Assembly (NCBI GenBank): GCA_036758885.1
Contig: DAIOVT010000001.1
Coordinates: 1 to 39,723 of the forward strand
DNA: 39,723 bases
Source: Kineosporiaceae bacterium
GTDB lineage: Bacteria; Actinomycetota; Actinomycetes; Actinomycetales; Kineosporiaceae
Direction: 5' to 3'
Under the pieces are notes generated by a model. It was not told the origin of the DNA and searched no databases. It saw nothing but the letters and a program-made list of their open reading frames with translations. The position numbers were made by a program, and so were the translations under genes. Position 1 is the stretch's first letter, and each line of letters opens with the position of its first letter. Positions 2,803 through 27,307 of the stretch are shown piece after piece.

Positions 2803-4200
2803 TCAGAACTCGGGCCCGGGGGGAGGCGCGGTGGCGATCTCGTCCTCGTCGAGCTGGATCTTCAGCGGTGCCCGCAGACCCTTGGTCAACCAGAGCATCA
2901 GCAGGACCCCGATGCCGAGCCAGATGGCTCCGTACCGCATCGACTCACCGGAGAGATTGACCCAGAGCACGATGGTGCAGAACAGGCCGATCAGCGGCAG
3001 CACGACGTTGCGGAAGATCTGGCTGAACCCGTTGGTCTGCTTCTGCCTGATCGCGAAGTGCACGATCACGGTGATGTTCACGAAGCTGAACGCGATCAGG
3101 GCGCCGAAGTTGATCAGGGACGCCACGAAGTCCAGGTTCAGCGGGATGGCGAGCAGCGAGACCGCGCCGACGATGATCACGGACCAGATCGGCGTGTGGA
3201 ACCTCGGGTGGATGTTGGACAGCGTGCGGGCGATCGGCCCGGTTCCGTTGCGGCCCATCACGAACAGCATCCGGGAGACCGACGCGTGCGAGGCCAGGCC
3301 CGAGGCCAGCGTCGCGGCGAACGCCGCTGCGGTGAGGAACGCCTTGAACAACGACCCGCCGACCTCGAAGGCGATCTGCGGCAGCGCGCTGTTCTCGAGT
3401 GAGTCCTCGGAGAAGATGTTGAAGTCGGGGAACAGCGACTGGGTGAACCAGCCGGCGACGAAGAACAGTGCGCCACCGATCAGCAGGGTGACCACGATGG
3501 CCTTCGGCACCAGGGCCGGGTCCTTCGCCTCCTCGGTGTACATGGTGATCGCGTCGAACCCGATGAACGAGAAACAGACGATCGTGGCACCGGTGATCAC
3601 CAGACCGAGATGGACGTCGTCGTGCCACAGCGGCTGGGTCGAGAAGATGGTGCCGTTGCCCTCGCCCCGGGAGAGTCCCCGCCAGGCCAGGACGACGAAG
3701 ACCACCATCAGCACGATCGAGAAGCCGACCAGCAGACCGTTGACCCGCGAGGTGTTGCTCATGCTGGTCATCACCAGGGTGGTCACCGCGAAGACCACGA
3801 TGACGACCCAGATCCACGCCGGCACGTCCGGGAAGAAGGCCTCCATGTACGAGCGCAGGATCAATGCGTTGACCAGGGGCAGCAACAGGTAGTCGAGCAG
3901 TGACGACCAGCCGATGACGAAGCCGACGTTCGGGTGGATGGTGGCCGAGGTGTACGTGTAGGCCGAACCGGCCGAGGGGAACACCCGGGTCATCCGGCCG
4001 TAGCTGAGAGCGGTGAAGAACATCGCGATCAGAGCCAGCACGTACGCGGTCGGGACGACGCTGTTGGTCTCCTCCGCGACGATGCCGAAGGTGTCGAAGA
4101 TGACCGTCGGCGTCATGTACCCGAGGCCGAGGCCGACGATGGCCCACAGTCCGAGTGATCGAGACAGATGCCCGGTCTCGTTGCTGGTGCCTTGCGCCAT
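2803..4200 (-). CDS. APC-family amino acid/polyamine permease
   Basis: About 12-TM protein with typical APC N-terminal motifs (LGLWAIVGLGLGYM.P, SAGSAYTY). I prefer ATG 4200 (MAQGTSNE) because a GGAAGGG SD lies 8 nt upstream. The ORF-track start at 4254 adds 18 non-hydrophobic residues. Confidence 0.85.
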   Translation of the reverse strand: MAQGTSNETGHLSRSLGLWAIVGLGLGYMTPTVIFDTFGIVAEETNSVVPTAYVLALIAMFFTALSYGRMTRVFPSAGSAYTYTSATIHPNVGFVIGWSSLLDYLLLPLVNALILRSYMEAFFPDVPAWIWVVIVVFAVTTLVMTSMSNTSRVNGLLVGFSIVLMVVFVVLAWRGLSRGEGNGTIFSTQPLWHDDVHLGLVITGATIVCFSFIGFDAITMYTEEAKDPALVPKAIVVTLLIGGALFFVAGWFTQSLFPDFNIFSEDSLENSALPQIAFEVGGSLFKAFLTAAAFAATLASGLASHASVSRMLFVMGRNGTGPIARTLSNIHPRFHTPIWSVIIVGAVSLLAIPLNLDFVASLINFGALIAFSFVNITVIVHFAIRQKQTNGFSQIFRNVVLPLIGLFCTIVLWVNLSGESMRYGAIWLGIGVLLMLWLTKGLRAPLKIQLDEDEIATAPPPGPEF

Positions 4201-15580: not shown

Positions 15581-16564
15581 TCACCGTTCGCCGTTCATCG
15601 CCGCACCGGCCCGGGCCAGTTGCTGCTCGAGCTCCTCGATGGTCGGCATCGCGTCGGCACAGGCCAGCCGGGAGGCCACGATCGCACCGGCGGCGTTGCC
15701 GTACTCCGCGCTGCGGGCCGGGTCCCAGCCGCTGAGCAGTCCGTGCACCATCGCCGCCCCGAAAGCGTCTCCGGCACCGAGCCCGTTCACCACGTCGATC
15801 CGTTGTGGCGCAACGGTTGTCATGGCTTCATCGGTGGCCACGAGCACGCCGTCCGCACCCATCTTCACGATCGCGATCTCGACACCGCGATCGAGCAACC
15901 GGCGCGCAGCCTCGCGCGGCTCGGCGGTGCCGACCGCAACCTCCACCTCGGCGCGGTTGCCCACCGCCACGTTGACGAAGTCGAGCATCCGGCCGTACTC
16001 ACCGCGGGCCTGTTCCACCGAGATCCAGAACGAGGGCCGCCAGTCGAGGTCGAGAACCGAGAAGCGTCCGGACCCGGCCGCCGGCCGGCCACGCCGGGCC
16101 AGCATCTCCAGCTGGGTCGACCGCGAGGTCTCCATCGAGGCCCCGGTCGCGGTGACCCACAGCAGTCGTACCGATCCCACCTCGGGCCAGGGCACGTCGT
16201 CCGGGGTCAGGGTGAGATCGGGCGCGACCGGCAGCCGGTAGAAGGTGAGCGGGGGATCCTCCGGCGGGTTGAGTTCGCAGAAGGCGATCGGGGTCTGCAG
16301 CCCGGGGGCGTCGCCGACGTACTGCGGGTCGACCCCGAAACCGAGCATCGCCTGACGCACGAACGAGCCGAACCCGTCGCGGCCGACCTTGGTCAGTACC
16401 GCACTGCGATGCCCGAGCCGAGAGGCGCCGACCGCGACGTTGGTCGCCGTGCCACCGAGGAACTTGGCGAACGTCCGCACCTCGGCCAGCGGCACCCCGG
16501 ACTGTTCCGGGTAGAGGTCCACCCCGACCCGCCCCACGGCCAGAACGTCCAGCGATTCACTCAC
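15581..16564 (-). CDS. iolC: 5-dehydro-2-deoxygluconokinase (PfkB family)
   Basis: It has LDVLAVGRVGVDLYP, GGTATNVAVG and the C-terminal GAGDAF motif. The ORF track starts at ATG 16615. I prefer GTG 16564 because 16565-16615 forms a complete operator/-35/-10 cassette (see promoter feature). Confidence 0.85.
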   Translation of the reverse strand: MSESLDVLAVGRVGVDLYPEQSGVPLAEVRTFAKFLGGTATNVAVGASRLGHRSAVLTKVGRDGFGSFVRQAMLGFGVDPQYVGDAPGLQTPIAFCELNPPEDPPLTFYRLPVAPDLTLTPDDVPWPEVGSVRLLWVTATGASMETSRSTQLEMLARRGRPAAGSGRFSVLDLDWRPSFWISVEQARGEYGRMLDFVNVAVGNRAEVEVAVGTAEPREAARRLLDRGVEIAIVKMGADGVLVATDEAMTTVAPQRIDVVNGLGAGDAFGAAMVHGLLSGWDPARSAEYGNAAGAIVASRLACADAMPTIEELEQQLARAGAAMNGER

Positions 16565-16615
16565 GGACCCATCCAACGCGGCGACCGCGCGACTGTCAAC
16601 ACTTTGTCCTAACAT
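16565..16615 (-). promoter_or_regulatory. iolC promoter with upstream TGT-N4-ACA operator (leaderless arrangement)
   Basis: Minus strand reads ATGTTAGGACAA-agtg-TTGACA-17 nt-TTGGAT-6 nt-GTG(16564). Confidence 0.45.
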
Positions 16616-16623
16616 TACGACAC

Positions 16624-17029
16624 CCCGTGATCATGCAGAACCGCACGCCAACCCCGGCGTGATCATGCAGAACCGCACAACCCACCCGAGCGTGATCATG
16701 CAGAAGTGCACGGAGAAGGTGAGCATGCCCTGAAGGCGCGGCCCTCAACCTCCCCGTGATCATGCAGAACTGCACGTCGAGGCGTTCAGTAGCGGCGCTC
16801 GCACGACCAACCTCTGCCACCGTGCACTTCTGCATGATCACGAAGGCGTTGGTGGCTGCGGACCCACGGTACGGGCGTCGAGCTCCGCGCATTTTCTGCA
16901 TGATCACGGGTTGGTGGTGTGGTCACGCACGCGTGAGAGGCAGGGCATTCCGTGCACTTCTGCATGATCACGCCGGGGCTTTGCGGTTCTGCATGATCAC
17001 GCTGGGGTGCGGTTCTGCATGATCACGGG
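16624..17029. repeat. palindromically organised array of nine copies of the motif C-GTGATCATGCAGAA-NN-GCAC
   Basis: Forward copies are at 16627-46, 16659-78, 16692-711 and 16756-75. Inverted copies are at 16822-41, 16887-907, 16952-71, 16981-17000 and 17007-26. The 15-mer CGTGATCATGCAGAA is invariant in all nine. Degenerate copies lie between them, for example at 16719-38. Confidence 0.95.
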
Positions 17030-18039
17030 TAGAGGGGTGGCTTGGGCATCAGTTCGACGGTGGCGCGCTCCCCGGAGGCGAGGGCGGTGAGGCCGGCGTC
17101 GGCGACCACCTGGGCCGCGTAGCCGTCCCAGGCGCTGGGGCCGGAGGCCGGCCGGCCGGCGGCCACGCCGTCCACCCATTCCTGCAGTTCGATGTCGTAG
17201 GCCCGGGCGAACCGCTCACGCCAGTCGTCGGGGACCGATCCCGCCACGGTGCCTCCTGCCCGTACGGCCACCGGTGAGGAGTCGTTGAGCGCGACGGTGC
17301 CCTCCTCGCCGACGATCTCGCCGCGGATGTCGTAGCCGTAGCGGATGTTCACCGATACCTCGACGTCGACGATCGCACCGCCGGCCATCTCGAAGAGCAC
17401 CAGCAAGGGATCCTGCAGGTCCCCGCCGTTCTTGCTCTTGCGCGGAACCAGGACCCGGACGGCGCTGATCTCCTCGCCGAAAAGCCACCGTGCCAGGTCG
17501 ATCTCGTGCACCGCGGTGTCGACGATCATCATTTCCTTGACGTAGTGCCCCGGCACCGAGGGGTTGCGGTGCGCGCAGTGCATCATCAGCGGGGCGCCGA
17601 TGCGTCCGGCGTCGAGCACTTGTTTCATGGCGCGATACTGCGGGTCGTAGCGGCGCATGAAGCCGACCTGCACCAGACGTGACCCGTGCGCCTCCTCGGC
17701 CTCGACGATCCGGGCGCAGGCGTCGCGGGTGTCCGCCAACGGCTTCTCGCAGAACACCGGCTTGCCGGCCGCGATCGCGGCGGTGACGTACTGCTCGTGA
17801 CTGCCGCCCCACGAGGTGACCAGCACCGCATCGACGTCCGGCGCCTCGATCGCCTCCTCACCGGCGGCGTAGGCCTTGGCCCCGACCCCGGCGGCGACTT
17901 CGCGCGCCCGGTCGGCGTCGACGTCGCTGACCGCCACGACCGACACCCCGGCCAGCACGCTCGACAGCCGGCGGATGTGGTCCTGACCGATCATGCCGAC
18001 ACCGATGACCGCTACCCGAACTGGCTCCCGCGCACCCAT
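17023..18039 (-). CDS. iolG: inositol 2-dehydrogenase (Gfo/Idh/MocA family)
   Basis: It has VRVAVIGVGMIGQDH (Rossmann fold), FCEKPLA, and the GFMRRYDP and HEID motifs typical of IolG. The stop TGA lies inside repeat copy 9. I prefer ATG 18039 over ATG 18048, which lies inside the putative -10. Confidence 0.85.
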   Translation of the reverse strand: MGAREPVRVAVIGVGMIGQDHIRRLSSVLAGVSVVAVSDVDADRAREVAAGVGAKAYAAGEEAIEAPDVDAVLVTSWGGSHEQYVTAAIAAGKPVFCEKPLADTRDACARIVEAEEAHGSRLVQVGFMRRYDPQYRAMKQVLDAGRIGAPLMMHCAHRNPSVPGHYVKEMMIVDTAVHEIDLARWLFGEEISAVRVLVPRKSKNGGDLQDPLLVLFEMAGGAIVDVEVSVNIRYGYDIRGEIVGEEGTVALNDSSPVAVRAGGTVAGSVPDDWRERFARAYDIELQEWVDGVAAGRPASGPSAWDGYAAQVVADAGLTALASGERATVELMPKPPLYP

Positions 18040-18092
18040 GGGGCACATTCGATCCGATGCCCAGTACTGCGGTCAATCGTTTGTGCATACAT
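18040..18092 (-). promoter_or_regulatory. iolG promoter with upstream TGT-N4-ACA operator (leaderless arrangement)
   Basis: Minus strand reads ATGTATGCACAA-acga-TTGACC-18 nt-TCGAAT-7 nt-ATG(18039). Confidence 0.45.
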
Positions 18093-27208: not shown

Positions 27209-27307
27209 GGCTTGCTCCTCGTGGATCTGCCGCATCGAAGGCTGACGATGCATTACGCCTAATGATAGGACAAAGTAACTGCTATGCGGAAGGGGCGCGG
27301 ACGACCC

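Follow-up and report, generated by a model that had tools for sequence, protein, structure and literature searches.

Much is known about small, dispersed palindromic repeats in Proteobacteria, whereas descriptions from Actinomycetota are scarce. The closest described systems are the RAYT-associated REP sequences and BIMEs of Enterobacteria and the REPINs of Pseudomonas (PMC3116915, PMC2817692, PMC3733652), and what they have in common with the repeats reported here is that each genome has hundreds of short copies, nearly all of them extragenic and most of them 3' of genes. Head-to-tail dimers have been called negligible in classical REPs (PMC3733652), and Actinobacteria are not mentioned in those REP/RAYT surveys in which we looked for the term, including the GTAG/CGTC survey. 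A second class with shared features is that of the MITEs, for example the Correia elements of Neisseria, in which terminal inverted repeats of ~22 nt, an overall length of 44–550 bp, an intergenic location and possible effects on transcript ends are all points of resemblance. Within the actinobacteria, the MIRU elements described by Supply et al. in 1997 are reportedly head-to-tail tandem units between co-oriented genes, sense-biased and overlapping the flanking stop codons; the individual units are said to be 46–101 bp long and to carry short ORFs, with no inverted runs after them.

Here we analyse a window of 39,723 nucleotides from a Kineosporiaceae bacterium (contig DAIOVT010000001.1 of assembly GCA_036758885.1) in which nine units of a palindromic repeat occupy the space between the inositol genes iolG and iolC. 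With good confidence, we consider this array to be the largest local cluster seen of a non-autonomous, selfish-type repeat family of REP/BIME/REPIN-like character, whose copies are numerous, dispersed and extragenic in Kineosporiaceae-type Actinomycetota, and not a regulator of the inositol genes. The family is apparently undescribed so far, as our search of the literature found neither the exact 14-mer GTGATCATGCAGAA nor any repeat family of the Kineosporiaceae.

Results

Nine repeat units between iolG and iolC

The flanking genes are iolG and iolC, as first stated in an earlier note on this stretch. Both lie on the minus strand, so that the array comes after the iolG stop codon and before iolC. 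The features of the locus are as follows.

15581..16564, minus strand: iolC, 5-dehydro-2-deoxygluconokinase, from its likely GTG start; the frame 15581-16615 scores above the IolC equivalog curated cut-off
16601..16617, plus strand: operator-like 17-mer ACTTTGTCCTAACATTA, in the gap that separates the cluster from the start of iolC
16616..17032, no strand assigned: whole repeat cluster, four forward then five reverse units, an imperfect 406-bp palindrome
16626..16646, plus strand: unit 1 (CGTGATCATGCAGAACCGCAC), partner of unit 9
16658..16678, plus strand: unit 2, CC subtype, partner of unit 8
16691..16711, plus strand: unit 3, GT subtype, partner of unit 7
16718..16734, plus strand: possible eroded unit GGTGAGCATGCCCTGAA, not significant in the profile search
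16755..16775, plus strand: unit 4, CT subtype, partner of unit 5 in the fold and of unit 6 in the mirror alignment
16822..16842, minus strand: unit 5, GT subtype, extra central copy
16888..16908, minus strand: unit 6, exact 15-mer whose inner end diverges to AATGCG; no partner in the fold
16952..16972, minus strand: unit 7, GT subtype
16981..17001, minus strand: unit 8, CC subtype, GCAA end
17007..17027, minus strand: unit 9, CC subtype; its TGA (17025-17023, minus strand) is the iolG stop codon
17023..18039, minus strand: iolG-like inositol 2-dehydrogenase (P0001), 338 aa as called in an open frame of 341 aa (17023-18048), Gfo/Idh/MocA family, below the NCBIfam curated cut-offs

The 15-mer CGTGATCATGCAGAA is present in nine exact copies within positions 16626-17027 of the window, four of them forward (15-mer starts at 16626, 16658, 16691 and 16755) and five reverse (starts at 16828, 16894, 16958, 16987 and 17013), just as the earlier note had counted them. 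In dinucleotide shuffles the chance expectation at three mismatches or fewer is 0.66 matches, and none of 100 shuffles reached 11; the only other matches in the window are those at 3041 and 8544, with 2–3 mismatches. Searching the 39.7 kb with a profile HMM of the repeat family adds no copy outside the array, in line with the note, which had found no other copy either. The GCAC tail that the note had included in its motif applies to eight of the nine copies in the form NN-GCA(C/A) and breaks down at copy 6, which has AATGCG instead and which is also the array unit with the weakest profile score (E = 1e-4).

Start-to-start distances between the copies are 32, 33 and 64 nt on the left and 66, 64, 29 and 26 nt on the right. 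The note had fitted these to a lattice of 32.5 bp; three recurrent unit types of 32, ~55 and ~65 nt, described below, explain the spacing better. As for the eroded copies that it placed at empty lattice points, the spacer between units 3 and 4 does hold GGTGAGCATGCCCTGAA, which agrees at 12 of 15 positions and has a 2-nt insertion, but it receives no score in the profile search. Similarly, the 44-nt spacers that had been called homologous do have GGA...ATGCCCTG in common but are otherwise poorly alignable. The ATGCCCTG that lies within the possible eroded unit has its mirror counterpart at 16941-16948.

The mirror symmetry seen in the earlier note is real: the two halves align in register as 1:9, 2:8, 3:7 and 4:6, with copy 5 extra. 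The inverted arms are 21–33 nt long and 91–100% complementary, and paired arms have matching subtypes (CC/CC/GT). When folding, proposed in the note as a check, was carried out, the minimum-energy fold predicted for either strand was one nested hairpin with the pairs 1:9, 2:8, 3:7 and 4:5, with energies of -270 and -277 kcal/mol (z = -14.4 and -15.7). No Rfam 15 covariance model matched either strand of positions 16000-17600 at E <= 1, and there is no target-site duplication around the cluster, again as the note had said.

A dispersed family in Kineosporiaceae

A metagenome scan recovered the motif on at least 119 contigs, 105 of which come from Ga0209793. The Ga0209793 contigs carry at least 327 copies of CGTGATCATG, at least 309 full 15-mers and at least 133 clusters in 344.5 kb, where the figure of at least 327 describes a related population, the window organism itself being known from one cluster in 39.7 kb. 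The two are close in base composition (69.9% GC for the Ga0209793 repeat contigs, 69.5% for the window), and PcnA encoded on a Ga0209793 contig is 78–81% identical to that of Kineosporiaceae MAGs and 72% identical to that of Spongisporangium, which identifies the carrier population as Kineosporiaceae. PcnA homologues P0122 and P0124 (81–83%) are from the same samples as L002 and L003, two of the three relatives whose iol loci are compared below, with P0124 on the L003 contig itself. These links would place the window organism, too, probably among the Kineosporiaceae.

Elsewhere the units lie beside pcnA, genes for DUF2332, patatin, ApbE and hydrolases, and many others unrelated to inositol. 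Hundreds of dispersed copies, in at least 133 clusters on 105 contigs of one population and next to unrelated genes, support the REP/REPIN- or MITE-like option among those that the earlier note had offered; they are also the very finding that it had set against a locus-specific device. A device or protein platform peculiar to the iol locus is not supported.

The scan of a genome collection returned at least 43 stretches, most of them chance or coding look-alikes. One such candidate, which encodes FNVIMQNGT within a permease conserved across Streptomyces, Amycolatopsis and Saccharopolyspora, was rejected as coding and not a family copy. Among the matches listed, intergenic hairpin copies with the same core are found, at low copy number, in Spongisporangium, Georgenia and Klenkia. 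Spongisporangium articulatum (Kineosporiales) has TTCGTGATCATGCAGAAACGCACC followed after 40 nt by the inverse, and besides this one copy that is truncated and a variant whose inner arm differs; Georgenia wangjunii (Allobogoriellales) has two forward copies and one reverse copy as well as a singleton; and Klenkia marina (Geodermatophilales) has an intergenic element carrying the family core.

In general form, a unit consists of a C-rich leader, ~CCCACCCCGG, and the core CGTGATCATGCAGAA-YY-GCACG; the consensus of 338 copies is ~CCCaCCCCnC followed by CGTGATCATGCAGAA-C-T-GCACG. The 15-mer is 97–100% conserved over hundreds of copies, and in a 3'-anchored alignment the 5' ten bases of the core are 93–99% conserved and the leader 40–80%. 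Family-wide, then, core positions stand at 93–100% and flanks at 40–80%, and the note's impression from nine copies that the 20-mers are preserved while the rest decays extends to the family. The core, CGTGATCATGCAGAACTGCACG, starts with CGTG(A) and has only 4 bp of terminal complementarity (CGTG...CACG) along with a weak TGCA/TGCA dyad.

Neighbouring units in the same orientation are spaced at 32 nt (30–34 nt, ~58 pairs), 53–56 nt (35 pairs) or 63–67 nt (17 pairs). The 32-nt unit type is the core plus a 10-nt spacer, the ~55-nt type is the core plus a small GCACG...CGTGC hairpin and the leader, and the ~65-nt type is either a longer version of the ~55-nt form or two 32-nt units of which one has decayed. 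Units 1–3 of the window form a block of three 32-nt repeats, and a dozen or more loci in Ga0209793 have three-unit blocks to which the segment 16625-16712 is 84–92% identical. Between neighbours at short range (32–78 nt), forward-then-reverse pairs outnumber reverse-then-forward pairs by 45 to 9. In the usual pattern, forward units come first and reverse units after them, so that a cluster can fold into a single long nested hairpin, and ~50 clusters run in one direction; the loops between inverted units vary in length from 0 to over 100 nt, and their sequences are unrelated. With its ++++----- arrangement, the window cluster is the largest of those sampled.

The location of the units is strongly extragenic: 308 of 343 copies (~90%) fall outside GC3-supported frames, which cover 66.5% of the DNA (p = 3e-105). 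Of the flanking gene pairs, 27 are convergent, 29 tandem and six divergent, a bias to gene 3' ends that amounts to a trend only (chi-square p = 0.053). We also considered a CRISPR array and rejected it, as the 10-nt spacers are themselves conserved, half of the copies are inverted and the repeat is present at more than 130 loci.

Units share stop codons with upstream genes

The core contains TGATCA, and a TGA is therefore available on both strands. In the window, the stop codon of iolG is supplied by copy 9 (TCA at 17023-17025), as the earlier note had recognised. The same arrangement prevails in the family at large: there are 39 frames whose 3' part enters a core, and 34 of these end at the core TGA and five read through in another frame, whereas one third would be expected to stop there by chance (p = 5e-12). 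In the two cases that have orthologues for comparison, the stop codon has kept its position, since iolG ends with CTC TAC CCG TGA in the window and its orthologue with CTC TAC TCG TGA in L003; likewise the position is unmoved in pcnA, where the element-bearing gene ends in ...RGQSS* and that of a relative in ...RGQGH*.

Two explanations fit the sharing of stops, namely integration at or next to a TGA, and strong selection in favour of those insertions by which a stop is restored at once. It is a tentative and, in our judgement, unlikely proposition that the family represents an unrecognised actinobacterial mobile repeat that homes to TGA stops and then multiplies head-to-tail in 32-nt steps by means of an enzyme other than a classical RAYT. 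If it did, the first bases of the core, (CG)TGA, would be the integration target or overlap it, and the element would repeatedly land on the stop codon of a gene and assume its function. Stop-codon sharing, should it be due to targeting, would represent a new integration preference.

Sister genomes contain a second, unrelated-looking palindromic repeat that also begins with GTGA and that supplies the iolG stop in L002. The GTGA start common to both repeats hints, at the level of sequence, at a wider 'GTGA-tagged' superfamily.

How the units might spread

We looked for a mobilising enzyme in several ways. An all-against-all BLAST of 318 predicted proteins revealed no multi-copy protein family on the repeat contigs, the genes bracketed by arrays are ordinary genes, and a crude Y1-transposase motif scan of ~830 kb, in which a single-copy gene would be easily missed, found no ORF of the YxxNP/HUH type to which RAYTs belong. 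BLAST of the whole array against plasmids and phages gave no match, and the 30-nt consensus compared with plasmids gave only chance or coding matches, for example in branched-chain amino-acid permeases and a Micrococcus SAF-domain gene. The units would be expected to spread in trans, through an enzyme that recognises the invariant 15–22 nt, and because no target-site duplication is seen, a hairpin or single-stranded DNA route of the HUH type is our favoured guess.

A different kind of mobility would be that of a miniature derivative of a DDE transposon, whose left end would be the four forward 22-bp sites and whose right end the five reverse ones, with no cargo between them, in the style of Tn7, Mu, Tn402 or IS21. 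Several direct 22-bp sites on each side that are inverted between the sides, a block of three 32-nt repeats that recurs as a unit at many loci, and the TG...CA inside the core termini (TGATCA...TGATCA) are what would be expected of such an element. Nevertheless, we judge it improbable: there is no target-site duplication in any of 37 forward-then-reverse clusters, the window's included, the number of sites per side varies freely from one to five and the period between 32, 55 and 65, and ~50 unidirectional clusters have no partner end. Furthermore, conserved bases, namely a CG and the C-rich leader, extend beyond the putative TG terminus, 430 kb of repeat-bearing contigs yielded no transposase gene, and there were zero copies in plasmids, phages and viral contigs, the scan of viral contigs giving 0 matches.

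Conservation of the core raises the alternative that it is a binding or recognition sequence selected by the host, for a nucleoid protein, as an uptake-signal-like sequence or for RNA processing, in which case the iol array would be a cooperative platform. Selection would then keep the sequence invariant, and it would gather as inverted pairs after genes, as DUS do in Neisseria. The near-invariance of the 15-mer while its flanks drift would suit such a role, as would its identity in three orders (Kineosporiales, Allobogoriellales and Geodermatophilales), the closeness of the dominant 32-bp period to three helical turns, and the 15:4 bias to the sense orientation of one-directional runs between co-directional genes (p = 0.02). 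Against this, the distribution is patchy, with no copy in the window's closest relatives (46 kb) or in an unbiased 21.5 kb of Spongisporangium, and no candidate protein has emerged. In addition, the composite 32-, 55- and 65-nt units recur as blocks, spacers included, which looks like copying and not like convergent selection. We consider a host-selected site hardly probable, and return to the dispersed repeat family to ask how its largest cluster arose at the iol locus.

The iol locus and its history

Homology to the relatives stops exactly at the iolG stop codon and picks up again at the iolC start. Its resumption at ~16552 suggests that iolC starts at the GTG at 16564, which from the sequence is a likelier start than the ATG at 16615, and the distance from the array to this GTG is then 61 nt, a stretch that contains ACTTTGTCCTAACATTA. 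In three relatives, L002, L003 and L171, whose IolG proteins are 79–82% identical to that of the window, iolG is followed by a 288-aa AP_endonuc_2 gene; it lies between iolG and iolC in L002 and L003, and the L171 contig ends within it. AP_endonuc_2 proteins are xylose-isomerase-like TIM barrels. The repeat motif is absent from all three relatives, including the orthologous site, and tblastn found no AP_endonuc_2 remnant inside the window array.

That the array is a device specific to the inositol operon, be it a set of operators bound by IolR or by the adjacent LacI-type repressor, or an attenuator dedicated to the operon, is very improbable: it does fill the iolG-iolC spacer and abut an operator-like 17-mer, and a gene for a LacI-type regulator lies directly upstream of iolG, but the units flank unrelated genes elsewhere, the iol clusters of three relatives are without the motif, and the separate 17-mer ACTTTGTCCTAACATTA recurs with 16 of 17 positions at 27260-27276, in a second intergenic promoter region of the iol cluster, and so is preferable to the repeat as a candidate operator. 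We give equally little credence to an assembly artefact, in the form of a repeat-induced mis-join or a collapsed or expanded array in a metagenome-assembled contig: the array interior is supported by one assembly, the MAG contig, and the independent Logan assembly of run SRR21773983 ends inside unit 7, but the latter is identical over iolG and copies 9, 8 and 7, from which it follows that the iolG-array junction is real, both flanks are collinear with the relatives in the same orientation, exact repeats within the array are no longer than 33 nt and thus below the usual assembly k-mers, and clusters of this kind agree at 99.98% identity between two independent assemblies, L092 and L166, of the related Ga0209793 population.

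How did a dispersed repeat come to form so large a palindrome at this site? ATGCCCTG adjoins units 3 and 7 in mirror positions and is found beside the motif nowhere else in 829 kb. Together with the subtypes common to the paired arms, this locus-unique sequence points to local growth by duplication or conversion. Family-wide, tandem neighbours have the same subtype in 64 cases versus 45 +/- 5 expected. The 4+5 palindrome may therefore have grown in place, through tandem duplication plus either inverted duplication or conversion from arm to arm, and its growth might be tied to the loss of the AP_endonuc_2 gene. One could speculate that recombination between clusters that once flanked AP_endonuc_2 would explain both the loss of the gene and the unusual size of the array. 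Compensatory co-variation between hairpin arms is weak (23 versus 18 +/- 2.5), and for this reason we do not claim that pairing is selected for outside the invariant core.

A probable role at the end of the iolG transcript

Transcribed from iolG, the array would form a hairpin of ~-270 kcal/mol that would end or stabilise the iolG message. The predicted role of a long RNA hairpin that terminates or stabilises the transcript is plausible because of the fold, the position after the stop codon and the trend of the family to gene 3' ends. A hairpin at the end of iolG would also insulate iolC, which seems to have an operator and promoter of its own in the 61 nt downstream. Given the location of the cluster after iolG and the operator-like sequence and plausible promoter belonging to iolC, a very stable transcript-end hairpin is the most likely effect, and the cluster probably acts as one between iolG and a separately promoted iolC.

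A scan for promoter and terminator consensus sequences called nothing, and there is no intrinsic terminator (no U tract) in 16300-17300; what comes after hairpins of the family is G-rich sequence. By our own reading, which the consensus scan did not call, TTGACA-N17-TTGGAT is a plausible iolC promoter, ending 6 nt before the GTG.

Discussion

The repeat family provides a sequence-defined actinobacterial example of small dispersed palindromic repeats, with Spongisporangium articulatum, Georgenia wangjunii and Klenkia marina as cultured carriers. For annotation, its recognition matters in that so striking a structure might, without it, be misread as a regulatory device, as a CRISPR-like array or as the end of a transposon, and the family also accounts for assembly breaks at such sites. 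At the iol locus itself, the transcription units of iolG and iolC are likely to be divided by the array, which stands where the relatives have a gene that the window lacks.

It remains to set the family beside the known systems. The multi-site ends of transposons, such as the TnsB sites of Tn7 and the ends of Mu, Tn402 and IS21, look close at first sight with their several direct 22-bp sites per side, inverted between sides, but here there is no duplication, no fixed number of sites and no transposase, and many arrays are one-sided. The MITEs are set apart by other features, as the elements here make no duplication, conserve neither their interior nor their length and have a variable number of terminal units; nor was a parent insertion sequence with the same ends seen in the sampled DNA. 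With MIRU the overlap with stop codons is shared, whereas the main period of 32 nt is not a multiple of three and the palindromic form is dominant here.

The strongest likeness is to REPs, BIMEs and REPINs, with which the family shares inverted neighbours that fold into larger structures, variable spacers, the lack of a target-site duplication and clusters of several units. As in REPINs, two inverted units form a larger hairpin. The single unit, however, is not that of a classical REP as defined in PMC3733652, for it has no stem of 8 bp or more and neither a GTAG nor a CGTC tag. In BIMEs the orientation of units alternates, whereas here units commonly keep one orientation, at a period of 32 nt, before an inverted run sets in, and it is a further difference from REPs and REPINs that the repeat's own TGA serves the upstream gene as its stop codon. 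The array that separates iolG from iolC is a genuine and striking structure, and the kind of explanation that it calls for is an ordinary one: it is an exceptionally large cluster of the dispersed palindromic repeat class, in which the sharing of stop codons and the head-to-tail runs of 32 nt are the features that stand out.

The iolG-iolC junction in relatives

Directly after iolG, three metagenomic relatives that lack the motif (L002, L003 and L171; IolG 79-82% identical) carry a gene for a 288-aa AP_endonuc_2 protein (xylose-isomerase-like TIM barrel), which in L002 and L003 sits between iolG and iolC. This gene is missing from the window and has left no remnant there (window interval 16553-17025, against L002 11027-12135, L003 11018-12073 and L171 1059-1954).

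The sister genomes contain a palindromic repeat distinct from the window family, approximately GGCACGGCGTGACGTCGTGCCCGTCTAG... with CTAG/ATTGA at its centre, which lies 3' of iolG, of the AP_endonuc_2 gene and, in the relative's contig L169, of pcnA. In L169 it is flanked on either side by short tandem repeats, CCACAACTTGGGCGA in two to three copies and CCCCAGGCCGTTGTG in four.

L002 11020-11057 and 11996-12033: GGCACGGCGTGACGTCGTGCCCGTCTAG-type palindromic repeat
L003 11955-12015: GGCACGGCGTGACGTCGTGCCCGTCTAG-type palindromic repeat
L169 3020-3080: GGCACGGCGTGACGTCGTGCCCGTCTAG-type palindromic repeat
L169 2988-3030 and 3075-3135: short tandem repeats

Just as unit 9 of the window cluster supplies the iolG stop codon, that of L002 is supplied by GTGA of the GGCACGGCGTGACGTCGTGCCCGTCTAG-type repeat. 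In another metagenomic relative (L172 1735-1800; IolG 82% identical), the gene after iolG is convergent and the iolG stop falls within CCTGATCAcggactcTGCAGACTGCACG, which resembles a core unit that has diverged or been interrupted, in the position that the core has in the window.

Family members and look-alikes elsewhere

Two further metagenomes, Ga0210109 and Ga0055441, hold family members (L081 1588-1680, L106 650-690); here two reverse units lie only 19 nt apart, start to start, tighter than the 32-nt norm. A Spongisporangium variant (L017 6781-6869) keeps the outer TTCGTGATCATG, while its inner arm differs yet stays complementary (GAAACTTCTAGT); AACTAGAG comes after both elements of that contig. 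The two assemblies of the repeat-rich Kineosporiaceae population, L092 and L166, are 99.98% identical; an indel of ~35 nt separates L092 5583-5591 from L166 6385-6429, away from the repeat clusters.

Pattern searches for the motif can be contaminated by a coding look-alike, TTCAACGTGATCATGCAGAACGGCAC: in Streptomyces, Amycolatopsis and Saccharopolyspora it is part of the gene for a conserved membrane permease, where it is translated as FNVIMQNGT.

L005 3211, L015 1008, L025 2535, L033 3941: TTCAACGTGATCATGCAGAACGGCAC look-alike sites

The iolC start and upstream region

Because homology to the relatives begins at ~16552, the true start of iolC is probably GTG 16564 rather than ATG 16615. With this start, a leaderless promoter is possible immediately upstream, although the consensus scan did not call its TTGACA-17 nt-TTGGAT arrangement.

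16564-16599, minus strand: possible leaderless iolC promoter (TTGACA 16599-16594, 17 nt, TTGGAT 16576-16571, 6 nt, GTG 16564)
16601-16617: operator-like 17-mer ACTTTGTCCTAACATTA, immediately upstream of iolC
27260-27276, reverse strand: second 17-mer site, 16/17 match to ACTTTGTCCTAACATTA, intergenic, beside the transaldolase-like gene of the iol cluster

The 17-mer is a candidate operator for IolR, a regulator of the GntR type.
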